DNA of 64,000 bases from an uncultured Candidatus Saccharibacteria bacterium (GCA_964416985.1 CAYQFS010000001.1:83413-147412), one strand, 5' to 3'. Shown: positions 2,033-38,954, numbered from the stretch's first letter. Numbers and translations: made by a program. Notes: generated by a model not told the origin, from the letters alone.

Positions 2033-2449
2033 ATGCCCACACTTAACCAGCTTGTGCGAAAGAATCGCAAGCGCTTTGTCCGAAAATCAAAATCGGTCGC
2101 GCTTACAAAGACATTTAATACAATTAAAAACCGTCCAAGTTTCCTCGCATCTCCATTTAAAAGAGGAGTATGCATTAAGGTCACAACAAAGACCCCAAAG
2201 AAGCCTAACTCAGCTATCCGAAAGATTGCCCGAGTTCGACTTTCAAATGGAATGGAAGTAACAGCCTATATTCCAGGAGAAGGACACTCACTTCAGGAAC
2301 ACTCAGTTGTTCTCCTTCGAGGTGGTCGTGTAAAGGACGTAGGACTCCGATATACAGTTGTACGAGGAGTGCTCGATGCAGCAGGAGTAGAGAAGAGACG
2401 AAAGGGTCGAAGCCAGTACGGAAACAAGAGACCAAAAGCTGCAAAATAA
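2033..2449 (+). CDS. rpsL: 30S ribosomal protein S12
   Basis: [13 protein letters not shown]...; conserved S12 core ([20 protein letters not shown]). Confidence 0.95.
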
Positions 2450-13391: not shown

Positions 13392-14249
13392 TTATTTGCG
13401 ACGAAGAACAAGTCGTGTGTGCCAATCCCGAATCGTGGGTTGGTCGTAGCCGAGAGGAGTGGGGTTAGGAATATCGGTTAGCTCCTCAAGTTCGAACCCA
13501 ACCTCTTTGAAACGACGTACCCAACCCTCTTCAGTCTCGTAAGTACCAGGAACTGGTATATCGGCTGAATGGAATAGCCGATTGTAAACGTAATCACTGA
13601 CGAATGTACGTTCGAATTCATTAGGATCGTTCCGAATCGGCACTGTCTCGATGACGACGAGCCGACCACTAGGACGAATAATCCGAGCAAGTTCACGAAG
13701 GATTTTCTCATTGTTCTCTTCATGATGAGCGACGTTTGTCATAAGACCAGCATCGAAGTGTCCATCAGATACCGGAATAGATATTCCGTCGAAATGTTTG
13801 ATTGGGGCCATCACTCCATGAGTAGGGTAGTTGCGTACATCATACCCTGTTATGTTGTGAGTGATATGGTCATAGACATAGTTTGTAACTTGCCCATCAC
13901 CGCACCCAAAGTCAATTATCGTTTCATCTTGACGAAAGAACTTTGAGATCTGCGCGTAAACGATCTGAGCACGATCCACCATTTTCTCCTCGAGAACTTG
14001 GATGAGGGTTGCGCCATCGATGAAGATTTCAGAGAATTCAGAATTGACTAATCGTTCGGTGTGTTCGATATCTGTGGTATTGGCCACGGTCTGCGTTACG
14101 AATTTCACCACTGACTGTGCTCGATCGTTGAGACCGAGATTCATGAATGTATGCATGAGGTCTTTGCGGACTAACTCATGCACTTGAGGGTTTGCCAATG
14201 CAGCTTTAAGACGTTGCTGCATCTTGGCGATATCTGGACGTTGTTGCAT
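13392..14249 (-). CDS. class I SAM-dependent methyltransferase (antisense insert inside the ribosomal protein supercluster)
   Basis: 285 aa with motif I IIDFGCGDGQV and post-I acidic residue. Rossmann-fold MTase signature. Local GC is higher than the flanks. Confidence 0.75.
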   Translation of the reverse strand: MQQRPDIAKMQQRLKAALANPQVHELVRKDLMHTFMNLGLNDRAQSVVKFVTQTVANTTDIEHTERLVNSEFSEIFIDGATLIQVLEEKMVDRAQIVYAQISKFFRQDETIIDFGCGDGQVTNYVYDHITHNITGYDVRNYPTHGVMAPIKHFDGISIPVSDGHFDAGLMTNVAHHEENNEKILRELARIIRPSGRLVVIETVPIRNDPNEFERTFVSDYVYNRLFHSADIPVPGTYETEEGWVRRFKEVGFELEELTDIPNPTPLGYDQPTIRDWHTRLVLRRK

Positions 14250-26259: not shown

Positions 26260-26675
26260 TGGTGGAGATGGGCGGAATTGAACCGCCGTGCAGTTGAAGT
26301 TTCATGATGCTTCTACAATGTGTAGCTAGCTTTAGCGAGATCTCTCTCTTTTGACCTGCATGCTTGAAAGCAAGCAAAACACATGCAGGCGATTCCCCAA
26401 GTTTCGGATTACAAGCAGGGAAGAGAATGTAATCCACGTCGGAGGTTATATCAACTCATCACAGCTTCCGATGCGAAGTGAGAGCCGTCGCCTAAGGCAG
26501 AGTTTAAGCTGCGTAAGCGAAAGCAAGGTCCTGTGTTCCAAAATATGGAGACACGAGAGACTTTACCTTTGCAACTGATGATTTTGCAGTTACGGTGTCC
26601 GTTAGTTTTAAGAGGTAACGGAACTCTACATTGCGCGGCATGAAGGGACCCCAGCTGTCGAGGCCTTTCATCCCC
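26260..26675 (-). ncRNA. ssrA: tmRNA (SsrA)
   Basis: 5' end GGGGAUGAAAGGCCUCGACAGCUGGGG (compare E. coli GGGGCUGAUUCUGGAUUCGACGGG). 3' end GGUUCAAUUCCGCCCAUCUCCACCA, with the acceptor pairing 5'-GGGGAUG with CAUCUCC-3'. Internal tag ORF ends ...LAFAYAA-UAA. smpB is immediately upstream on the same strand. Confidence 0.85.
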
Positions 26676-26711: not shown

Positions 26712-27161
26712 TTAACGATCTGAAAATTCTCTTCGAATCTCTCGGTCGGTGTCGCGCTTCCTGATGTCCTGGCGCTTATCAAATTTCTTTTTACCACGGA
26801 CAACAGCGATTTCAACCTTGATTTTCTTACCTTTATTATACAGCGAAATAGGCACTATTGTCAATCCTTTCTTTGAATCGAGTGCCGCGAGCTTTGCAAT
26901 CTCAGCTTTTGTAAGGAGAATGCGGCGATTTCTTTTTGGATCATAGGAGTCGGGAGTGTTTTTAATTTGATACGGGGCAATGCTTGCTCCAATCATGAAC
27001 GCTTCGCCACCGCGCACAGTTATGTGAGAACCGAGGAGGGAGCCCTGGTTTGTACGGAGGCTTTTGACTTCGATTCCAAGAAGCTCAATACCAGCCTCGA
27101 ATGTTTCGAGGATTTCGTAATCAAGCGACATTTTCTTGTTGTAGGCGAGTGATTCGGCCAT
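26712..27161 (-). CDS. smpB: SsrA-binding protein SmpB
   Basis: 149 aa; DYEILETFEAGIELLGIEVKSLR matches the SmpB core, with a basic C-terminal tail. Confidence 0.92.
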   Translation of the reverse strand: MAESLAYNKKMSLDYEILETFEAGIELLGIEVKSLRTNQGSLLGSHITVRGGEAFMIGASIAPYQIKNTPDSYDPKRNRRILLTKAEIAKLAALDSKKGLTIVPISLYNKGKKIKVEIAVVRGKKKFDKRQDIRKRDTDREIRREFSDR

Positions 27162-27761: not shown

Positions 27762-30700
27762 ATGAAACATTCCTGGATCAAGAAGATTTTTATCGCATCC
27801 TTTTTCATAGTAGTTTTCTTGTCTCCTCTTAGTAATGTACGTGCTGATATTACCTCGAGCTTTCTTGGTCACTGGACATTTGATACTACTAACACGAATT
27901 GGGGCACTAATACAACATCTGACACATCCAGTAATGGGTATAATGGTACATTAACTAATTTTTATTCTGCGACGAGTACTGTTGTTGGGCAGCTCAATCA
28001 AGGTCTCTATTTTGATGGTGTCGATGATAAAGTAAGTCTCCCAACATCAGTTGTTGGCAGTAGTATAACACTTTCTGCATGGATAAAGCCTGCGGTGGTT
28101 AACAAGGAGCAACGCATCATTAACTACCATAACCGGTATCGACTCGAACTTTCTGATAATGGAAAACTATACTGTGCATTTCATACTGTAAATCAGTCAT
28201 GGAACTTCTGTAGTACTCTCGGAAATACCACACTTGTAGCGAATCGTTGGTACCACGTCGCTGTAACATACGATGGATCGTCGACGTATACGTATTATCT
28301 AAATGGAGTCGCAAACGGAAGTAACTCATCTCAATTTACTGGGGCATTAACTGGAGGGTCACTTACTCCTTGTATTGGTGATGCCTGTGGAGATGGAAAT
28401 ACTACAGCTTTTTTTAAGGGATCAATGGATGATGTCAACATCTACAGTCGAGCCCTTTCTTCTGGCGATATGCTTGAGTTGTATACTTCTGCTTTTGTAC
28501 CCACCATCACTACCTCCGATGCATCTTCCATCACCGCTACAACTGCCACTCTCAATGGTTCGATAGATGTTGCCAATGCCGCCTCCTCAACAATCCGAGG
28601 ATTTGCTTATGGGACGAGCGCAACACTTTCTACGGTAATAGCTACTACAACCGAGAGTGGGATATTTGATTCGGGAGCATTTACTTCAGCTGTTTCCGGT
28701 CTTACAGGAAATACGACATATTATGTACGAGCATATGCGTCAAATGCTACATCGACAGGGTATGGAACTATCAAATCTTTCACCACCTCTGTGGCTGTGG
28801 TTGTCCCTACAGTGACAGTTCAGTCGGCTTCCTCAATTACTGCAACTATGGTTACCCTGAATGGGACAATGACGTCTGATGGGAATGCTTCCTCTACTGT
28901 ACGAGGCTTTGCATATGGGACAGATACTAGTTACAGTCTGGGAACAACTACCGAGAATGGTACCTTTGCAATAGGTTCTTTCACAAGTAGCATCTCTTCT
29001 CTCACGTGTAATACGACGTATCATGTGCGTGCATACTCTACAAATTCGGCGGGAACAGGCTTTAGCGGCGATCAGACATTTTTAACAAGCCCATGTGTTC
29101 CAGGAAATCCAACCTCCGTTGTTGCTGTAGCGGGGAATGGTCAGGCGACTATATCATTTACTATTCCTGGAAGTGATGGGGGGTCTACGATTTTGTACTA
29201 CACTGCATCTTCGACCCCAGGAACCCAAGCTGGTTACGGGACTTCTCCGATTACAGTCTCGGGACTTTCAAATGGAACCACATATACATTTACTGTAACT
29301 GCTACAAATGCAGTTGGGACAAGTACCGCAAGTTCTGCATCAAACTCGATAACTCCTTCTACAACACCCACCATCACTACCTCCGACGCATCTTCCATCA
29401 CCGCTACAACTGCCACTCTCAATGGTTCGATAGATGCTCTCGGGGGAGCTTCTGTTACTGATCGTGGTTTTGAATGGGGTACTAATAATGCTTATGGAAA
29501 TAGTATTTCAACAAACGGCAGTTACTCGGTAGGAACATATAATGCAGATCTTTCTGGTTTGACGTGTAATACTGAATATCATGTACGAGCATTTGCAACT
29601 AACTCTGTCGGGACTGCTTCATCAAGCGATTCTTCTTTTACAACTTCTGCCTGCCCGGTATCATCTACTCCTTCCTCAAGCAGCGGTAGTTCTTCGGGCG
29701 GTGGGGGGAGATCAGGATTTGTTCAAATACTTCCCACCCCTTCTCTTGTTACAAAAGTTTTTGATATCATTACCCCTTCTTTTCTAAAGCCTAAAGTAGT
29801 TCCTGCCGCTGTTGCTCCCATCATAGAAATTAAAAACCCTCTTGACGGGTCGTGGAAACTTCTTCCTCAAGAGCCAGTGAAATCTTTTGTCCTTGCTCCA
29901 TTACCTGAGGAAGTGCTCGTTCTCACTGCCAAGTTTCCTGAATTAGAAAAGACGTTCAAAACACTTGGTATTACCAAGGTAAGTGATCTCGGTAAACTTA
30001 AAAATGCAAGTATCAATCTACCCAACTTGAGTGCACGAGTAGGTGCTAATGGGGCAGTTCCAATTGGTTCTTTAACTCCAGATCAGAAGAAGATGCTTCC
30101 GACCGAAGTTGTTTTTGCAAGATCGGGTACTGTTGATTATAACGTAGGACTTACTGTAAATAACGGAAATCCTGAACAGCAGGTAAAAACAATTGTTGGA
30201 AAGCCACTCGATCTTGCCATTAAAGCCGATAAACCCGTTAAAGAAATAAAAGGTTACTTGACCGTGAAAAACATCGAAAGAAAGTCTGTTTCAAGGCCTA
30301 TCCCTTCCGATTCAATGCTTGCTTCAGTCGTTGCTGCGATATTACCAACACCACATCCACGGACTGAAGGGGTTGAAGTAGAACAAAAACTTGTTCTTCA
30401 GGAATTTAATTATAGTGATGATAATAATGACGGGATTTACACTGCCCAAGTTCAGACTCCCTTACTTAAGGGTGAATACGATATTATTTCAGTAATGCAG
30501 TATCGGGATATTAAATTAGGTTCCAAAGAGTTTCATTTGACAACTGTCGTTGATCCGGAAGGATATATTTATCGTGATAGTGGTAATGGAGAAGAGACTC
30601 GTATTCATGACGCTACTGTCACTATTTTTCAAAAGAATCTTAGTACATCAGATTTTGAATTATGGCCGGCAAATAATTTCCAACAGACAAATCCTCAATT

Positions 30701-30893
30701 GACGGATAAGAGCGGAACTTACTCGTTCCTTGTTCCTGAAGGTATTTACAAAATTACTGTATCTGCACCTGGTTACGAGGATTATATAGGCAGTGAGTTC
30801 TCTGTTGTACAGGGTGGGGGAGTACATACAAACATTGTTCTCAAGCCGAAAGGTGTGTGGAATCGTTTCTTGCGTTCAATAAAATTAAATTAG
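27762..30893 (+). CDS. large secreted/surface protein: signal peptide, LamG (concanavalin A-like) domain, ~5 tandem Fn3-like repeats, C-terminal carboxypeptidase-regulatory-like beta-sandwich
   Basis: 1043 aa. N-terminal signal peptide (MKHSWIKKIFIASFFIVVFLSPLSNVRA). LamG-like block (...YFDGVDDKV...LSAWIKP...WYHVAVTYDG...). Repeated ~95-aa units with SSITATTATLNGSID...YYVRAYASNA..G.G..SFTTS. G/S-rich linker. C-terminal DATVTIFQKN...GTYSFLVPEGIYKITVSAPGYEDY. Confidence 0.75.
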   Translation: MKHSWIKKIFIASFFIVVFLSPLSNVRADITSSFLGHWTFDTTNTNWGTNTTSDTSSNGYNGTLTNFYSATSTVVGQLNQGLYFDGVDDKVSLPTSVVGSSITLSAWIKPAVVNKEQRIINYHNRYRLELSDNGKLYCAFHTVNQSWNFCSTLGNTTLVANRWYHVAVTYDGSSTYTYYLNGVANGSNSSQFTGALTGGSLTPCIGDACGDGNTTAFFKGSMDDVNIYSRALSSGDMLELYTSAFVPTITTSDASSITATTATLNGSIDVANAASSTIRGFAYGTSATLSTVIATTTESGIFDSGAFTSAVSGLTGNTTYYVRAYASNATSTGYGTIKSFTTSVAVVVPTVTVQSASSITATMVTLNGTMTSDGNASSTVRGFAYGTDTSYSLGTTTENGTFAIGSFTSSISSLTCNTTYHVRAYSTNSAGTGFSGDQTFLTSPCVPGNPTSVVAVAGNGQATISFTIPGSDGGSTILYYTASSTPGTQAGYGTSPITVSGLSNGTTYTFTVTATNAVGTSTASSASNSITPSTTPTITTSDASSITATTATLNGSIDALGGASVTDRGFEWGTNNAYGNSISTNGSYSVGTYNADLSGLTCNTEYHVRAFATNSVGTASSSDSSFTTSACPVSSTPSSSSGSSSGGGGRSGFVQILPTPSLVTKVFDIITPSFLKPKVVPAAVAPIIEIKNPLDGSWKLLPQEPVKSFVLAPLPEEVLVLTAKFPELEKTFKTLGITKVSDLGKLKNASINLPNLSARVGANGAVPIGSLTPDQKKMLPTEVVFARSGTVDYNVGLTVNNGNPEQQVKTIVGKPLDLAIKADKPVKEIKGYLTVKNIERKSVSRPIPSDSMLASVVAAILPTPHPRTEGVEVEQKLVLQEFNYSDDNNDGIYTAQVQTPLLKGEYDIISVMQYRDIKLGSKEFHLTTVVDPEGYIYRDSGNGEETRIHDATVTIFQKNLSTSDFELWPANNFQQTNPQLTDKSGTYSFLVPEGIYKITVSAPGYEDYIGSEFSVVQGGGVHTNIVLKPKGVWNRFLRSIKLN

Positions 30894-30898
30894 ATAAT

Positions 30899-31276
30899 AT
30901 GAAGAATATGTTTACAAAAAATTCCTTCATGATCATAGCTATTGGGGTACTTGCAATTACAACAATTTTGTATTCTATAAAAAGTTACTCCTTGGCGCAG
31001 AGACTTGCAGAAATGGAAAAAAATCTCCAACCACAGGTTGCTCACACGGAGATTGCGAAGTTTACGAAATTATTTATTGATAAAGTTTTGAATGCAGAAG
31101 GTTCGGTAAGTTTTGACACAAGACTTGAGCTAGAGAATGCTGTACGTGCGACGAGAGATGATGAGCTTTTATCTCAGTGGAATGCCTTTGTGAATAGTAA
31201 GACAGAAGCAGAGGCACAGACTCAAGTTAAAAGATTGTTGGCTATGTTGGTAACAAAGATTGTTCCAGCTCAATAA
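30899..31276 (+). CDS. membrane-anchored hypothetical protein (N-terminal TM + helical domain)
   Basis: Start chosen at MKNMFTKNSF... right after the upstream stop (ORF track gives 30857). 126 aa. Confidence 0.45.
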   Translation: MKNMFTKNSFMIIAIGVLAITTILYSIKSYSLAQRLAEMEKNLQPQVAHTEIAKFTKLFIDKVLNAEGSVSFDTRLELENAVRATRDDELLSQWNAFVNSKTEAEAQTQVKRLLAMLVTKIVPAQ

Positions 31277-31330
31277 ATAAAAAAGCCCCGAAAAAATTCG
31301 GGGCTGTGAAAGGGGGCTATAAGCCTCCCG
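31271..31330. terminator. tandem hairpin terminators between convergent genes
   Basis: AGCCCCGAA-aaaa-TTCGGGGCT perfect hairpin (31284-31305) with A-tract upstream, which is a T-tract on the minus strand. Second hairpin GGGGGCT-ata-AGCCTCC (31312-31329). Confidence 0.6.
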
Positions 31331-31343
31331 ATTCTAATTTATT

Positions 31344-33512
31344 TTACTGATGGCCAAGGAGCCATGAAGGTAGGGCGGTACCTCGTACTGCCTGCTTTCG
31401 ATTAATTTCTTCAACCGCGACCTCTTTCTTCACTCTTTCAACAATGCGGTCATCGATGAATGTTTTTTCTCCGACGAGATACTCGGGGAGACCGAAGGGG
31501 TTGAAAGGTAATGGAGGAGCATCTGGGTGCGTCAATGAATATTTTGACACCGTTGGGTCACCATTTTCCTTACCATCCAGAATCGTACCAATTTCTATTA
31601 GCTGTTGGCGAGCCATTTTTCGTGACTCGGATTGAGATGATTTTAGTGTGTAGCTTTGTTGCATCATCATCTGTTGTCCCGATTGGTATGAACCACTTGG
31701 CCAGACTGTTCGGAAGAATAGTGTCTGGCGATTGTTAACTGCGATTGCGGCTACCGCTTTTCGCAGCGGTCCTACAACAACCGTTGCCTCGACTGTCCAA
31801 GGACCATCGATGCTCTCTGCGACAAGTACGTCGTTCGTGGTATTTGGGATTGAGTGTACCACCAGATAGTTCGTCGTCCGGTCGAGAGTGAGTCCGTTGT
31901 AGTTGATAGGATCATCGTACACGTAGTTGGTGATTGCTGGCCCAAATGGCCCTTCAACAAGGGGATACCATTCCCGACTCAGATTCCAGAACGTGTTCGA
32001 ACTGGCTTTGTTGAGGGCGAAACCTTCACCGACAGCAAGTTGTGGCATTGTTGGCCACCACGAGTTACTTGTATACATGTAATTCGTGTATGTCCCGCTT
32101 GTGGGAAGGTATTGGTATAAGATGTCACCTTCAGTCACGGGTAACTTAAAACTCTCAGGATTTCCTGCCCGTGGATAAGGATATGACAGAATACTTTCGT
32201 GGTCGAGGATTTCACGTCCTATTCCTCCTTGTAAAACACGTCCTGCAAATGTGACAGAGATAGTGCTTCCTGAGGGGTTCGAAACCAGAGCTGCTTCTCC
32301 TGCAACAAGTTTGTCATTAGGGATAGTCCAGTTTGTTCCATCCCATATGTTTGTCGTCCATGTAGACCCGTACGACTTTTCAACCCTGCTTCCCGCAGGT
32401 AACTTGTAGAAGAGTTTCTTAATTCGAGGATCCATCACCGAAAACTGATTTGCGACAAGTGCTTTCTTGCCTGCAGCGATGGAAACCGTGTAGTACCCAA
32501 TAATATTCGAGACATCATTGGTTGATCTTATCCTGAAGTACAGGTTACTCGCTCCACCACTATAAACGTTCAGGGACATGATACCGTTTGTGGTAGAGTT
32601 TGCTGAACTTGATATTGTCGTCGACACTATAGTCCAATCTTGGGAGAGCAGATTGGTCTTTGATTCAAGGATGTAGGTTGTGCCTTCCGTTACCCATCCG
32701 AGTTTCAATGTCAGTAACTCATTTTGCCCAACAACATTTACTCCTTTAGGCAGACCTTGCTGCCATAAGCTAATTGTGTGTTTTTGAATTCCTATTGCTG
32801 GCTGAGCAAAGACATTTGTCACGATTATTGCAAGTGGGTTAGTACTTACCACTTTCACATCCCACGTTGCGATACTTGTATTTGAAGCTTTGTACGCTGT
32901 GGTTGCTGAGCCGTTTGTCCCTTTTACTGTAAAGGCAGCAAAAGGCCGACTGAGATGATCCATAAAAGGATCGTATAGTATGCTCACTGTCGCTTCGTTA
33001 GTTACTGATAAGCCGAAGCCATCAGGTGAATTGCCTAGACCCACATCACTTGAACCTCCAGATGAGTTATTTGTGGATGCTGCAATTTCCATGAAGTTTA
33101 ATGGAGGGTAGTACGGGTCCCCTGGACCAGAAGGAATGTGACCGCCATAGACGACCGGTGGGTCTGGCTGCATCCAGTCGTCGAATATACCACCGAAGTC
33201 TGGATCAAATGATGGTATGATCGGTGGCGGTTCATTGTTTGTGTAATTTGGGTATGATGGTTTTCCCGAAGGGAAATCGGGAGGAAAGGTGGGTGGTTCG
33301 TATGGAGGGCTATTGGTTTTTCCACTATTGATCTCGTCGATCAGGTTACTCGAAACTTCAGAGATCAAGTTTGTGAAGTCGTTGTTTAGTGTGTTGGTGA
33401 CGCCCACGTAGGGATCTGTGTATGTGGGGACACCTAGTGCCTGATTTAACCAACCAGTAACAATTAATGTTACCACAATGCTCATGAGAGCGTTCAACGG
33501 ATTTCGTTTCAT
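31344..33512 (-). CDS. large secreted hypothetical protein, Pro-rich N-terminal region
   Basis: Start chosen at MKRNPLNALMSIVVTLIVTGWLNQALG (signal peptide) with an AAAGGAAG RBS; ORF-track start 33650 rejected. 723 aa. PPYEPPTFPPDFPSGKPSYP low-complexity region, then S/T/N-rich beta-rich body. No known catalytic motif. Confidence 0.6.
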   Translation of the reverse strand: MKRNPLNALMSIVVTLIVTGWLNQALGVPTYTDPYVGVTNTLNNDFTNLISEVSSNLIDEINSGKTNSPPYEPPTFPPDFPSGKPSYPNYTNNEPPPIIPSFDPDFGGIFDDWMQPDPPVVYGGHIPSGPGDPYYPPLNFMEIAASTNNSSGGSSDVGLGNSPDGFGLSVTNEATVSILYDPFMDHLSRPFAAFTVKGTNGSATTAYKASNTSIATWDVKVVSTNPLAIIVTNVFAQPAIGIQKHTISLWQQGLPKGVNVVGQNELLTLKLGWVTEGTTYILESKTNLLSQDWTIVSTTISSSANSTTNGIMSLNVYSGGASNLYFRIRSTNDVSNIIGYYTVSIAAGKKALVANQFSVMDPRIKKLFYKLPAGSRVEKSYGSTWTTNIWDGTNWTIPNDKLVAGEAALVSNPSGSTISVTFAGRVLQGGIGREILDHESILSYPYPRAGNPESFKLPVTEGDILYQYLPTSGTYTNYMYTSNSWWPTMPQLAVGEGFALNKASSNTFWNLSREWYPLVEGPFGPAITNYVYDDPINYNGLTLDRTTNYLVVHSIPNTTNDVLVAESIDGPWTVEATVVVGPLRKAVAAIAVNNRQTLFFRTVWPSGSYQSGQQMMMQQSYTLKSSQSESRKMARQQLIEIGTILDGKENGDPTVSKYSLTHPDAPPLPFNPFGLPEYLVGEKTFIDDRIVERVKKEVAVEEINRKQAVRGTALPSWLLGHQ

Positions 33513-33729
33513 TTGCTTCCTTTCATCTGACCTGTTTTGGTTGTACCCCCTTGTAAAGGAAAGACCATCGGGGGGTAATGCGATGGTCGGCTGGCTATCA
33601 AATAACAAAATAACCAATCTAAAATTGAGGGTATCATAAAATAAGTCCATCGACCATTGACAGATTGGGAAACATGTCCTCCGTTGGAAAACTGTTTTCT
33701 TTCATTTTCCCCAATTTATCGTATAATCA

Positions 33730-35658
33730 ATGCCTATGAAGAAACACAATGACCCGCAAGGAGAAAAGGGAAAAAAGGGACAGAAGAAGCCCTCGAAACT
33801 TCGCTTTTTGAATACGATTTCCACAGCAATTCTCATCCTTTTCCTCATCACTGGATTTTATTCAATTCTTGTCGACCAGACGGCTGAGAAAAATCTTATT
33901 CCACTTTCAGAACTTGTTCACGATGTTGGTATGGGTAAAGTCACAGCTATTACTGTTCAGGGAAATACGCTTATTGCAGAATACGAAGACAAGGCGACCA
34001 AGATTTCCAAAAAGGAAACCGACGCTTCTGTCACAGAGACATTTACAAGTTATGGATTGACTCCTGAAAAGTTGAACGCAGTTAAAATTTCGATTGAAGG
34101 ACCGAGTGGGTTCTGGTTCTGGGTCGGACAGCTTGCACCCTTCATTGCACCTCTTTTCTTTTTAGCGCTCATTATTTGGTTTTTGACGCGGCAAGTGAGA
34201 GGTCAGGGAGGACTTCAGGCCTTCTCATTTGGTCAGTCGAAGGCCCGCATCACATTGCCAGACGACAAAAAGCAGAAAGTAACATTCAAGGATGTTGCTG
34301 GAGCAAAAGAAGCAAAGCAGGAACTTTCAGAAATCGTGGATTTTTTGAGAAATCCAAAAAAGTTTTTGGAAATTGGTGCGGTTATTCCAAAAGGAATTCT
34401 TCTCATGGGAGCTCCAGGAACTGGAAAGACCCTGCTCGCGCGAGCGGTGGCTGGAGAAGCGGGTGTGGCGTTCTTTGCTATTTCTGGATCTGAGTTTGTA
34501 GAAATGTTTGTGGGAGTTGGAGCATCGAGAGTCCGGGATCTCTTTAAAATTGCAAAGGAAAGTGCACCAGCAATTATTTTTGTTGATGAAATTGATGCAG
34601 TTGGGCGAGTGCGAGGGACGGGAGTTGGGGGAGGAAATGATGAGAGGGAACAGACATTGAACCAGATCCTTGTTGAGATGGACGGATTCGAGCCAAATGA
34701 GAAAGTGATTGTCATGGCTGCAACAAACAGACCTGATGTTCTTGATCCAGCACTTCTTCGACCAGGGCGATTTGACCGTCGGGTGACTATTGACCTTCCT
34801 GATCGAAATGATCGCGAGGAAATTTTGAAAATACATTCCGCAAAGAAACCTTTTGCTGAAGATGTCGCCCTTCGAGTCATTGCCGAGAGAACTCCGGGAT
34901 TTTCTGGTGCCGACCTCTATTCTCTTATGAATGAAGGAGCGATTCTTGCTGCTCGGGAAAATAGGACAAAAGTCTCTCAGTATGATCTCATTCGCGCTAT
35001 TGAAAAAGTAATGCTCGGGCCTGAGAGGAAAAGTCATCTTTTGTCTAAAAAAGAGAAAGAAATTACTGCGTATCATGAAGCAGGTCATGCTCTCGTTGCC
35101 TCAGTTCTTCCATTTGCTGATCCAGTTCACAAGATTTCAATTATTTCTCGGGGACGGGCTGCTGGATATACTTTGCACCTTCCTCTCGAAGATCGTAAGA
35201 TGCAATCAAAGAGGGAATTTCTCGATGACATCGCTGTCTCTCTCGGAGGCTACGTCGTGGAAAAAATGATGTTTGGAGATGTCACTACCGGCCCTTCAAA
35301 TGATCTCCAGGTTTCAACGGCTCTCGCTCGTGACATGGTTACGAAATATGGAATGTCAGAAAAGATCGGAGTCCTTGCTCTCGAAGGTTCTGGAGGTCGG
35401 GCGATGTTTGGAAAGGGAGTGGAAGACAGGGAATATTCTGAAAAAGTTGGAGCTGATATCGACAGTGAAGTCGCTCGTATTATGAAAGAAGGGTTTGAGA
35501 AAGCAGAAAAGATTGTGACTGAAAATAAAAAGGCCCTCGACGCTATTGCCCGAAGACTTGTCGAAGTCGAGACGATCGAAAGAGAAGAGTACGAGTCAAT
35601 CATCATTGCTCATGGGATTCAGCCAAAGAAAAAGCTCGACATTGAACATCAGTCGTAA
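33730..35658 (+). CDS. ftsH: ATP-dependent zinc metalloprotease FtsH
   Basis: N-terminal TM, AAA+ Walker [19 protein letters not shown] zinc site. Confidence 0.97.
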
Positions 35659-35678: not shown

Positions 35679-36587
35679 TTGCTTACGATGTCTTTCATTA
35701 AAAAATCATTTGTGTGGATTGTGCTCATTGTGATGATGGGCTTATGGAGTTACCAGTATTTTGTCATAAACGCCCCGTGTGCCCAACCCATCTACTATCA
35801 TCTCGGAGTATTTGATACGAGATTCAACATTAGCAAAGTAGATTTTCTTTCTGCTGTTGATGAGGCGACTCTCATTTGGGAAAAGGCCCTTGGCAAGGAT
35901 CTTTTTTCTCCGAGTACAGAGGGGAGGCTTGATATAAATTTGGTTTACGACGATCGTCAAGCTCTCGCCGAAAAGAACCGTACGCTTACAGCACAGGTCG
36001 ACACACAAAAAGTTTCGGCTGATGCAATCAAGGCGCAATTTCTATCTCTCCAAAATCGCCTTGATGAAAGAAAAAAAGAATACGAAGCGCTCGTTTCTGA
36101 GTTCGAGAAGGCACAGGATTCCTACAACACCGAAGTTCGTTTATGGAATCGAAAGGGGGGTGCTCCGAAAGATGAGTATGAAAAATTGAATAACGACAAG
36201 GATGCCCTCGTTGCTTTCCAAGCTAGAGTTGAAACGAAACGCCTCGAGGTTAATGCTCTCGTTGATGAAATAAATGCTCTTGTCAAAAAGTATAATTATC
36301 TCGTCGGAACGGTCAATTCTACTATTTCGACAATTAACAAAGATGCAGGGAAGGAGTTTGAGGAAGGGGAATTTATTTCTGACAGAAATGGAGAAAGAAT
36401 AAATATTTATGAATTTGGAAACCACCAGGTTCTCGTCAGAGTTCTTGCTCATGAGTTTGGACATGCCTTGGGACTTGATCACAATGATAATCCAGATTCT
36501 ATTATGTATTACCTGAATAACAGCAAAAATATGAAATTGACGGCTGAGGACACAGCGGCCGTGAAGGCGGTGTGTGGGGTGGAGTGA
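35679..36587 (+). CDS. membrane-anchored matrixin-like (metzincin, M10-like) zinc metalloprotease with coiled-coil linker
   Basis: N-terminal TM helix. Long coiled-coil region (LQNRLDERKKEYEALVSEFEKAQ...). C-terminal HEFGHALGLDHNDNPDSIMYY, i.e. HExxHxxGxxH plus Met-turn. Confidence 0.7.
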   Translation: MLTMSFIKKSFVWIVLIVMMGLWSYQYFVINAPCAQPIYYHLGVFDTRFNISKVDFLSAVDEATLIWEKALGKDLFSPSTEGRLDINLVYDDRQALAEKNRTLTAQVDTQKVSADAIKAQFLSLQNRLDERKKEYEALVSEFEKAQDSYNTEVRLWNRKGGAPKDEYEKLNNDKDALVAFQARVETKRLEVNALVDEINALVKKYNYLVGTVNSTISTINKDAGKEFEEGEFISDRNGERINIYEFGNHQVLVRVLAHEFGHALGLDHNDNPDSIMYYLNNSKNMKLTAEDTAAVKAVCGVE

Positions 36588-36634
36588 GCTTGATTTGAAA
36601 GTCAACCAACTTTAGTCTATGATAAGCCTTACAT

Positions 36635-36708
36635 GCGCCTTTAGCTCAGTTGGTTAGAGCACAGAGCTTATACCTCTGGGGTCCTTGGTTCGAATCCAAG
36701 AAGGCGCA
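36635..36708 (+). tRNA. tRNA-Ile (anticodon UAU)
   Basis: Cloverleaf: acceptor GCGCCTT/AAGGCGC; D-arm GCTC-AGTTGGTTA-GAGC; anticodon stem CAGAG/CTCTG with loop CT-TAT-AC; T-arm CTTGG-TTCGAAT-CCAAG; discriminator A. CCA not encoded. Confidence 0.85.
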
Positions 36709-36710
36709 CA

Positions 36711-38954
36711 TTACTCAAAATGCACCTTCTCCGTTTCTTTGCTCTCTGCTCGGCGTTTGACTTCTGGCCATTGTGAAAGCGTCTCGTCCTCGACGATGAG
36801 TGCTTGTGCCTCGGTGCGGGCAGCTTCCACCATTTTTATATTTTGAAGCGCTTCCATTGCAATATCGGAAACACCCCATTGCTTGCCTCCGGAAAGTTCT
36901 CCAGAACCACGAAATTTGAGATCATATTCTGCAAGTTCAAAACCATTTTTTGCAGTTTTGAGAGCAGTGAGACGCTCAACAGTCTTTGGATTCGGAGCGG
37001 ATTTTTGAGAGCCATCTCCGGTGAAAACATAGCAGTACGCCTGATGATTTGAGCGAATGACTCGACCGCGTAGTTGGTGAAGCTGGGCAAGACCAAAACG
37101 TTCGGCTCCCTCAAGAATAATGGATGTAGCATTTGGAACATTTACTCCGACCTCGACAACGGATGTCGCGCAGAGGATGTGAATTTTTCCCGCTTTAAAA
37201 TCGAGCATCACTCTGTCTTTTTCCGCCGGCTTCATTTTGCTATGAAGAATTCCAATTTGATATTCAGGAAAAATATCTTTTGAAAGTCGCTCTGCTTCTT
37301 CTTTGACCGACTTTGCATTGACCGCCGCTTCTTTTTCGGGATCAGGTTCGTTGATACGGGGACAGATCACATAGGCCTGGCGGCCGGCCTCAAGCTCAGT
37401 CCGGATTTTCTCGTAGACGAGATGTCGCTCATCTGGTCGCACGATTTCGGTGATGATTGGTTTTCTTCCATGAGGCATCTGGTCGAGAAGAGTGAGATCG
37501 AGGTCTCCATAAATTGTGAGGGCAAGGGTGCGGGGAATCGGGGTTGCGGTCATTGAGAGAAGGTGAGGAGCGCGCGCCTGGCCAAGCTCGTCCTTGTGGA
37601 CAAGTGAGGCTCGCTGCTTTGTTCCAAAGCGATGTTGCTCGTCAATGATGACGTAGGCAAGATTTTTAAATTTGACCGTTTTCTGAATGAGGGCGTGAGT
37701 TCCGATGAGGATGGGAATCTCTCCGTTTGCAACCCATTTCAATAGTTGAGCTCGAGAAATATCTGCCCAGCCTTTCGGGTTTAATTTTGAAGGAAATTTT
37801 CGGCAACCACTTCCGGTTATGAGTCCAACCTGAATTCCTAGATATGAAAAATACTGAATGAATGACTCAAAATGTTGGGTGGCGAGAATTTCGGTAGGGC
37901 ACATGTAGGCGACCTGGAGATTTCCATATTTTTGTCCCTTTGGTCGTGTTGTTACGACTGTATACGCCGTCGCAGCGGCTACAGCGGTTTTTCCCGAACC
38001 TACATCTCCTTCGAGAAGTCTAGACATTGGTGCATGTTTGGCAAAGTCTCCGGTAATGGTGGAGATAGCTTTGTTCTGGGCCTCTGTGGCGGAAAAAGGG
38101 AAGCGTTTCAAAAATTCCCCAAGGTTTTTTTGGTCTGTTTCAATGACGAAACTTTTGTGTTTCTCGTATGCTTTTTTGGCGAGTTGTTTGCCGAGCTGTA
38201 TGAAGAATACCTCTTCAAACGCAAAACGCTTTCGTGCTGCGAGGGCGTCTTCGAGTTTCATTGGCGCGTGTATCCAAATGAGTGCAGTTTTGAGTCCAGG
38301 CAGGCTGTATTTTTTGAGAATTTCATCGGGAATTGGATCGGTGATTGCATCGAGCATTCCTGTTCTAAAAAACTCCACGATCTTGTGATAGATCCAGTTC
38401 GATGTGATTCCTCGGGATTCGGGATATACAGGATAGAGTGTGTGGGATTCTCCCTCGCTTCCAAAAAGGGACTCTCCGACTCCGAGGGGAAGGCGATTGA
38501 CCACTTCAATTTTCGGATTTGAGAAATATAATTCACCAGTAGATTCTTGAGAGGCGTCTTTCCCTTGGACCTCTCTACTTCGCCTTTGAGAGATTTTTCC
38601 TTCGATTCGCACGAGTGCTCCTTCGGGGGTCATCTTTGCAAGATATGGCTGGTTGAACCAAACACAATGGATCTTTCCACTTTCATCCTCGACCCAGGCA
38701 TCAGCCATGGCGATTTTTGTGCGGAAACCTTTGCTCGTTTTTAATTTTGTAATTTTTCCGAAGACAACAGCTTCTTCGCCTTTTTCAAGAGAAGAAATAT
38801 TTTTGGTTTCGGAAATATCACTATAACGGGAAGGGAAATGATATAGAAGATCCTCGATTGTCAAAATTCCAAGGCGATGAAGAGCTTTTTTTTGGAACTC
38901 ATTCAGTCGCGCGGCAGTTTCGATGTGATCGGAAATGAGGCGGGCGCTCTTCAT
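36711..38954 (-). CDS. recG: ATP-dependent DNA helicase RecG
   Basis: 747 aa with wedge domain, helicase motif I GDVGSGKT, DExH, and the conserved C-terminal domain. Confidence 0.9.
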   Translation of the reverse strand: MKSARLISDHIETAARLNEFQKKALHRLGILTIEDLLYHFPSRYSDISETKNISSLEKGEEAVVFGKITKLKTSKGFRTKIAMADAWVEDESGKIHCVWFNQPYLAKMTPEGALVRIEGKISQRRSREVQGKDASQESTGELYFSNPKIEVVNRLPLGVGESLFGSEGESHTLYPVYPESRGITSNWIYHKIVEFFRTGMLDAITDPIPDEILKKYSLPGLKTALIWIHAPMKLEDALAARKRFAFEEVFFIQLGKQLAKKAYEKHKSFVIETDQKNLGEFLKRFPFSATEAQNKAISTITGDFAKHAPMSRLLEGDVGSGKTAVAAATAYTVVTTRPKGQKYGNLQVAYMCPTEILATQHFESFIQYFSYLGIQVGLITGSGCRKFPSKLNPKGWADISRAQLLKWVANGEIPILIGTHALIQKTVKFKNLAYVIIDEQHRFGTKQRASLVHKDELGQARAPHLLSMTATPIPRTLALTIYGDLDLTLLDQMPHGRKPIITEIVRPDERHLVYEKIRTELEAGRQAYVICPRINEPDPEKEAAVNAKSVKEEAERLSKDIFPEYQIGILHSKMKPAEKDRVMLDFKAGKIHILCATSVVEVGVNVPNATSIILEGAERFGLAQLHQLRGRVIRSNHQAYCYVFTGDGSQKSAPNPKTVERLTALKTAKNGFELAEYDLKFRGSGELSGGKQWGVSDIAMEALQNIKMVEAARTEAQALIVEDETLSQWPEVKRRAESKETEKVHFE

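Follow-up and report, generated by a model that had tools for sequence, protein, structure and literature searches.

The lysidine system is usually described as the bacterial route to decoding AUA, and its enzyme, TilS, is held to be essential and nearly universal, with exceptions counted in tens of species. Published bacterial carriers of a genomically encoded tRNA-Ile(UAU) number 9 to 19 species, and a 2026 preprint still refers to them as 'rare cases'. Among the closest described systems is that of Mycoplasma mobile, in which U34 is unmodified and the IleRS needs Arg865 to accept the UAU anticodon (PMC3575796). A U34 anticodon can read AUG through U-G wobble; what keeps AUG apart in M. mobile is a property of the organism's own ribosome, with tRNA-Met contributing as a competitor (PMC3575796). 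S12 and 16S rRNA have been named as candidates for this ribosomal property (Taniguchi et al. 2013; PMC3575796). Bifidobacterium and Neorickettsia also combine the absence of tilS with the presence of tRNA-Ile(TAT), a situation explained by a eukaryote-type IleRS. Lactobacillus casei/L. plantarum, Cyanothece and Ferrimonas possess tRNA-Ile(UAU) but have kept tilS (PMC3575796). Beyond bacteria, Nanoarchaeum equitans and Korarchaeum have a tRNA-Ile(UAU) and lack TiaS, so that U34 reads AUA directly in place of the modified-cytidine system. The eukaryotic cytoplasmic tRNA-Ile(UAU) carries a pseudouridine at position 34.

Here we analyse a 64-kb stretch of DNA (the window) with a genuine tRNA-Ile(UAU) gene. 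In this Taylorbacteria-like CPR bacterium, its product is probably the principal AUA decoder, and most likely the sole one, in place of the tRNA-Ile2(CAU)/TilS pair. The locus resembles that of M. mobile in having a genomic UAU isoleucine tRNA, with tilS absent where this is checkable (PMC3575796). It differs in belonging to CPR instead of Tenericutes, in representing a whole deep clade instead of a few species, and in offering positional evidence, in the neighbourhood of ftsH, for conversion of a CAU tRNA in place. The likeness to M. mobile is one of genes; unmodified U34, Arg865 of IleRS and ribosomal rejection of AUG are the hallmarks of M. mobile itself. The likeness to Bifidobacterium and Neorickettsia is likewise drawn from the tRNA gene, the fetched loci being without IleRS. 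Unlike in Lactobacillus, Cyanothece and Ferrimonas, tilS and the UAU tRNA never occur together at a locus in our data. Direct decoding of AUA through U34 is shared with Nanoarchaeum, Korarchaeum and eukaryotes, which however belong to other domains of life and have other modification machinery. With the lysidine system, as found in most bacteria, in Moranbacteria (loci L205-L207 and L209) and in Southlakia epibionticum, the locus shares the codon read and, in relatives, the same ftsH neighbourhood. The differences are U34 instead of C34 and a tilS slot without tilS. Because U34 replaces C34, lysidine is neither makeable nor needed in this tRNA.

RecG homologues at 67-92% identity to that of the window are named Candidatus Paceibacterota, Patescibacteria group and Candidatus Taylorbacteria, and Taylorbacteria MAGs are the nearest named neighbours in the FtsH tree. 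The window was therefore assigned to a CPR/Patescibacteria genome of the Parcubacteria group, near Candidatus Taylorbacteria. Its gene content includes a ribosomal-protein operon, IF3 with L20, smpB and tmRNA, ftsH, recG, an anaerobic ribonucleotide reductase, IscS/IscU and a type IV pilus cluster (Table 1). Within the ribosomal-protein operon, just past L5, a SAM-dependent methyltransferase gene is encoded antisense. Three RNA genes were retrieved with ARAGORN, namely tmRNA, tRNA-Ser(GCU) and tRNA-Ile(UAU). The GC content of the window is 43.5%, and the genome is thus only moderately AT-rich. ATA accounts for 10.8 per 1000 codons and 14% of isoleucine codons, a level of usage that would count as 'high' in one recent paper. 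An earlier note on this DNA, made by a model from the sequence, had described AUA as frequent in an AT-rich genome; the use of AUA stands, whereas the composition is more moderate than supposed.

Table 1. Positions of the features discussed, counted from the first nucleotide of the window.
Feature	Position	Strand	Evidence or remark
S12 gene	2033-2449	+	
SAM-dependent methyltransferase gene	13392-14249	-	
tmRNA	26260-26675	-	ARAGORN
smpB, adjoining tmRNA	26712-27161		
Two large genes between smpB/tmRNA and ftsH	27762-33650		
Divergent 768-aa ORF upstream of ftsH	31344-33650	-	No Pfam match
ftsH	33730-35658	+	Pfam AAA and Peptidase_M41
Matrixin-like (M10) peptidase gene, between ftsH and tRNA	35679-36587	+	Pfam PF00413
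Promoter-like TTGAAA-17-TATGAT	36595-36623	+	Consensus scan, 10/12 matches
tRNA-Ile(UAU) gene, 74 nt	36635-36708	+	ARAGORN, Rfam, direct reading, model R1, covariation
recG, convergent downstream neighbour and synteny anchor	36711-38954	-	Pfam RecG_wedge, DEAD and Helicase_C

The tRNA gene reads GCGCCUU / UA / GCUC-AGUUGGUUA-GAGC / A / CAGAG-CUUAUAC-CUCUG in its 5' half, followed by GGGUC / CUUGG-UUCGAAU-CCAAG / AAGGCGC / A. By direct reading, these segments form an acceptor stem of 7 bp, a D stem of 4 bp, and anticodon and T stems of 5 bp each, with no encoded CCA. The anticodon loop is C32-U33-U34-A35-U36-A37-C38, with U34-A35-U36 as the anticodon; the T loop is UUCGAAU and the discriminator is A73. 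ARAGORN, which the earlier note had suggested as a check, returned the same identity and anticodon, tRNA-Ile (tat), at 36635-36709 (+). The Rfam model RF00005 aligned end to end with 36635-36708 (+) at 72.5 bits (gathering score 29; E = 6.4e-14), and the gene scored 98.4 bits with R1, a clade-specific covariance model built from 51 UAU tRNAs. ARAGORN, Rfam and the sequence itself thus agree with the earlier description of a real tRNA at these coordinates, with a UAU anticodon and a canonical cloverleaf (U33, A37 and a 5-bp anticodon stem). None of 200 dinucleotide shuffles matched its fold stability (z = -3.6). The minimum free energy fold differs from the cloverleaf, as is usual for single tRNA sequences, and support for the cloverleaf comes from covariation in the 51 orthologues and not from this fold.

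The isoleucine identity set of Escherichia coli comprises A73, C4:G69, U12:A23 and A37. All of these are present in the window tRNA, together with C5:G68. In the 51 orthologues, A73, A37 and U12:A23 are invariant and C4:G69 is found in 45. Position 34 is T in the window tRNA and in all 149 collected members of the family, so the C34 of the lysidine system is missing throughout. The UAU anticodon and the Ile-type features bear out the view that this is not a mis-folded Met or Ile2 tRNA.

The meaning of AUA was examined through alignments of orthologous genes. The 644 ATA codons in the 55 FtsH genes of tRNA-bearing loci are matched in orthologues mainly by ATT/ATC (42%), then by Val and Leu codons. 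Met is outside the six commonest partners of ATA in this alignment, and ATG columns behave otherwise. A check on recG, a smaller sample and partly circular, gave ATA columns that are 85% Ile. From these substitution patterns, AUA is evidently used as isoleucine in the tRNA-bearing clade. The alignments, and also the E. coli Ile-type features of the tRNA, thus speak against the alternative that AUA has changed its meaning or that the tRNA receives an amino acid other than Ile, such as Met as in many mitochondria. In principle, AUG as well as AUA could be read by a UAU anticodon, and charging is here read from sequence only, but we consider such a reassignment highly improbable.

The tRNA gene is flanked by core genes. 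In the window, it follows ftsH and an M10 peptidase gene and faces recG, and the same arrangement, with the tRNA between ftsH/M10 peptidase and recG, was found in L002 (an 825-kb contig) and L003 (a 667-kb contig). Synteny with these two relatives indicates that the peptidase insertion belongs to the sub-clade of the window. The promoter-like site ends 11 nt before the 5' end of the tRNA and is possibly the tRNA's own predicted promoter; it is suggestive by position only, because sites of this kind are no more numerous in the region than expected by chance. Other core genes nearby are smpB/tmRNA and an nth-like HhH-GPD glycosylase gene.

This context bears on the idea that the gene plays no core role, being either a tRNA of a phage or mobile element or a pseudo-tRNA in decay. 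Phages and islands often bring tRNA genes for rare codons. However, no integrase was found among the window neighbours of the tRNA, the GC content is flat across the region, the position is conserved clade-wide, and strong covariation with no disrupted pairs, described below, argues against decay. We regard this as the least credible of the alternatives, with almost no weight.

Further upstream, smpB/tmRNA and ftsH are separated by two large genes, of which one encodes a 1043-aa LamG/fn3 surface-type protein and the other the 768-aa protein with no Pfam match. This segment looks like a lineage-specific insertion, because smpB directly adjoins ftsH in L002 and L003. The tmRNA of the window encodes a long tag of 27 residues (AKSSVAKVKSLVSPYFGTQDLAFAYAA), and a similar tag is found in L002.

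A search with the window FtsH against metagenome contigs retrieved 80 ftsH loci at 49-75% identity, 28 of which have tRNA-Ile(TAT) downstream of ftsH. Across 54 ftsH loci with the tRNA downstream, the gap between the two genes has a median of 101 nt and is no longer than 150 nt in 29. The states of tilS and the tRNA were mapped onto a neighbour-joining tree of 108 FtsH sequences, taken from the metagenomic loci and from those genome-scan loci that contain ftsH. The tRNA-bearing loci constitute one large FtsH clade, and the tRNA is present in every member with enough downstream flank. FtsH identity within this clade falls to about 54%.

An alignment of 51 orthologous tRNAs from the clade placed 99.4% of the cells in standard pairs. 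Changes on both sides were detected in 17 of the 21 pairs, none of 500 shuffles reached the observed covariation score, and no disrupted pairs were found. Sliding the pair partners by one column collapsed the pairing. C32-U33-U34-A35-U36-A37 and A73 are invariant in all 51. This degree of conservation indicates that strong purifying selection has acted on tRNA-Ile(UAU) throughout a deep clade, and the pattern reads as the signature of an essential, functional tRNA and not of a dispensable extra copy.

In the saccharibacterium Southlakia epibionticum, a Tn-seq table places tilS directly upstream of ftsH and lists it as essential in two of three analyses. The TilS HMM matched only ORFs in this position, at seven of the 80 metagenomic ftsH loci (L156, L177, L185, L189, L190, L196 and L200). 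Five of these seven ORFs were compared with NCBIfam and all matched TilS models: TIGR02432 was above cutoff for the four that include the bulk of the N-terminal domain, and the truncated ORF of L200 exceeded the cutoff of TIGR02433, the model of the C-terminal domain. Five more tilS loci retrieved through TilS homologues (L205-L209) again have the order tilS-ftsH; L205-L207 and L209 are Moranbacteria, one of them a complete genome. At 19166-20578 in L206/L207, a reverse transcriptase gene (RVT_1) lies beside a bAvd-family gene, about 8 kb from tilS-ftsH, and the pair resembles a diversity-generating retroelement.

The two genes appear to exclude one another around ftsH. tRNA-Ile(TAT) was absent from all 12 tilS loci, and tilS was absent from the ftsH-upstream slot in every tRNA-bearing locus examined. 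In the 46 loci that extend far enough to either side to be informative, both genes were found together in none, tilS alone in six, the UAU tRNA alone in 23 and neither in 17 (Fisher's exact p = 0.02, a value that ignores phylogenetic non-independence). In the window itself, the slot is occupied by the unrelated 768-aa divergent ORF, which has no TilS HMM match; likewise, no match to the TilS HMM and no PP-loop motif SGGxDS, in any frame, was found within the 64 kb. A 334-aa ORF in the tilS slot of a complete Woesebacteria genome (L076) was considered as a divergent TilS and rejected, as it proved to encode a class Ib aminoacyl-tRNA synthetase; a tRNA_bind ORF accompanies it upstream of ftsH. 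No PP-loop ORF was found beside the tRNA in 120 listed genome loci, which says little because these loci are only 8 kb long each.

Wider searches with TilS bear indirectly on the genome outside the window. Among the best 120 relatives of the Moranbacteria-type TilS in a collection of 5.8 billion proteins, every named match was Moranbacteria, and non-CPR TilS proteins (Zixibacteria and the long Chloroflexi type) were reached by about rank 90. Taylor-, Nomura- and Paceibacterota names, common among the RecG matches, were missing from these best 120. The missing Taylorbacteria names are weak negative evidence, because lists of 120 and 150 matches sample an enormous family of which few members are named. 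A search with the TilS profile A1 retrieved mostly the long Chloroflexi-type TilS. A HMMER search with Moranbacteria TilS against 1.84 billion cluster representatives at 50% identity yielded tiny clusters with a single name, again Moranbacteria, and so adds little either way. The earlier note had taken the UAU tRNA to imply either loss of tilS or an alternative modification that prevents misreading of AUG. The window has no tilS, nor does the ftsH-upstream slot of the tRNA-bearing loci, and for the genome as a whole we infer its absence from the comparative evidence as quite probable; loss of tRNA-Ile2(CAU) is proposed on the same comparative grounds.

Alternatively, the gene could be a redundant isoacceptor, with tilS and tRNA-Ile2(CAU) kept outside the window and the UAU tRNA an extra, as proposed for L. 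casei/L. plantarum. The 64 kb are only part of the genome, a tilS homologue alongside tRNA-Ile(TAT) is documented in a few bacteria (PMC3575796), and the 17 of 46 informative loci with neither gene near ftsH imply that both can lie elsewhere in some lineages. Nevertheless, a redundant gene would be expected to drop out sporadically, whereas the UAU tRNA is kept in every long-enough locus with an invariant anticodon loop. The slot is also without tilS in all UAU-tRNA-bearing loci, no non-Moranbacteria name from this group is among the best 120 TilS relatives, and probable Ile2-like CAU tRNAs, discussed below, were detected only in tilS-bearing loci. Considering both sides, redundancy is unlikely, and replacement of the tRNA-Ile2(CAU)/TilS pair is preferred.

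The origin of the UAU gene was approached with the R1 model, with which UAU tRNAs score 83-98 bits. The two top-scoring CAU tRNAs are both in tilS-bearing loci: one lies beside tilS-ftsH in Moranbacteria GW2011_GWC1_45_18 (L206/L207; 81.9 bits) and the other adjoins tilS in L177 (80.0 bits). With 80-82 bits on a model of UAU tRNAs, the body of these CAU relatives is nearly the same as that of the UAU family. They are probably tRNA-Ile2; the label is probable and not certain because R1 is not highly specific, with tRNA-Val(GAC) at 76-78 bits and Met-like CAU tRNAs of UAU-tRNA-bearing loci at up to 74.3 bits. The CAU tRNA of L206/L207 fits R1 at the conserved loop and junction positions, and its anticodon loop differs at C34 only.

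Gene order supports the correspondence. Just past tilS-ftsH in L206/L207, this CAU tRNA is located 13 nt upstream of tRNA-Val(GAC); in five loci of the UAU clade (L157, L165, L174, L175 and L180), tRNA-Val(GAC) follows the UAU tRNA after 1-90 nt. In the Microgenomates-like loci L007, L023, L076 and L084, the UAU tRNA is clustered near ftsH with initiator-like and elongator-Met-like CAU tRNAs, and the corresponding trio in the tilS-bearing L177 consists of three CAU tRNAs beside tilS-ftsH. The simplest history that we infer has three steps. The ancestor would have had tilS-ftsH followed by trnI2(CAU)-trnV(GAC); a change of C34 to U in trnI2(CAU) would have made lysidine unnecessary; and tilS would have been lost after this change. 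The M. mobile tRNA is likewise proposed to have arisen by way of a transition state, from which tilS and tRNA-Ile(CAT) then disappeared (PMC3575796).

To survey the distribution of the gene, each GTDB species was represented by a single genome and searched with a loose pattern, a D arm and then CTTATA, which retrieved at least 120 loci. Of the 120 loci listed, 118 were also called tRNA-Ile(tat) by ARAGORN (at least 118 overall), most of them from CPR. The count is an underestimate, because the pattern demanded GGTTAGAGC in the D arm and many members of the clade have other D loops. CPR titles among the listed loci include Taylor-, Nomura-, Uhr-, Magasanik-, Falkow-, Kuenen-, Buchanan-, Moran-, Curtiss-, Woese-, Shapiro- and Collier-bacteria, as well as Dojkabacteria, Peribacteria/Peregrinibacteria and Saccharibacteria. 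Outside CPR, the matches listed include a few Ignavibacteria, Chloroflexota, Dormibacterota, Actinomyces, Firmicutes and small DPANN archaea (L040, L052 and L054). These taxon counts are approximate because some record titles look unreliable, such as several of the form 'TPA_asm: uncultured Gammaproteobacteria / Candidatus Saccharibacteria' (L006, L021, L023, L077 and others). L077, for instance, is labelled Saccharibacteria and is placed among Taylorbacteria-like sequences in the FtsH tree. In Actinomyces spp. (L012 at 2802-2896, L072 and L088), the tRNA-Ile(TAT) calls of ARAGORN are 93-95 nt long. Their extra arm, GTGC-CTGATAA-GCAC, resembles a second anticodon stem-loop with GAT and could represent an insertion or else a variable arm of unusual length.

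In the loci collected here, tRNA-Ile(UAU) is the norm in a large clade of the ultra-small CPR bacteria and not a one-off. The rarity that the earlier note had ascribed to a UAU anticodon for isoleucine thus holds for published cultured bacteria (9 to 19 species) but not for this lineage, where it is a conserved, syntenic feature of a large clade; many other CPR groups have it too, with at least 118 confirmed loci in the scan. TilS-independent decoding of AUA by tRNA-Ile(UAU) is itself already known, and the gene of the window joins it. In our literature search, no paper tying tilS, lysidine or the UAU anticodon to CPR/Patescibacteria was found, and a clade-wide switch in CPR, with the states before and after it visible around ftsH, appears to be undescribed in the literature searched.

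For the preferred reading, in which the UAU tRNA decodes AUA, U34 would pair with the third-position A of the codon, and IleRS would have to accept U34. Misreading of AUG may be held down as in M. mobile, by an unmodified U34, discrimination by the ribosome and competition from tRNA-Met; alternatively, some modification of U34 may limit it. The window shows no obvious gene for tRNA modification. IleRS, sought for its residue equivalent to W905 of E. coli, was found neither in the window nor in any fetched locus; three ORFs with a KMSKS motif in the fetched loci were considered and set aside, as the motif of their HIGH region reads as ValRS-like. In the S12 protein of the window, the near-universal loop KDLPGVRY, situated close to the decoding centre, lacks its proline and reads KDV-GLRY. 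LPGVRY was present in all aligned PDB S12 chains and in the S12 of the Ignavibacteria locus L027. The deletion could be relevant to ribosomal discrimination between AUA and AUG. It would be at most lineage-specific, since L027 bears the UAU tRNA and has a normal S12.

A broader reading is that a large share of CPR swapped out the lysidine system, with CAU converted to UAU in place, tilS deleted, and AUA and AUG kept apart by a lineage-specific alteration of the decoding centre, such as the proline deletion in the KDLPGVRY loop of S12, or by an undescribed modification of U34. It would take in most Parcubacteria/Paceibacteria except Moranbacteria, and many Microgenomates, Dojkabacteria, Peribacteria and ABY1. 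We put this forward tentatively, as a possibility that is rather doubtful in its full extent.

The path of such a decoding switch is testable, because tilS goes with a CAU tRNA in some of the related genomes and is missing from others, which have a UAU tRNA, and the ftsH neighbourhood is in this respect an unusually clean natural experiment. CPR carriers may account for some of the 371 metagenomic tDNA-Ile(TAT) sequences that were left unassigned in 2013 (PMC3575796). In the annotation of CPR genomes and in estimates of their completeness, tilS should not be relied on as a marker that every genome carries. The CPR lineages with the UAU tRNA also offer a place to ask how a U34 tRNA avoids AUG. 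The evidence suggests that what has been treated as an exception in the decoding of AUA is the rule in a radiation that forms a large part of bacterial diversity.
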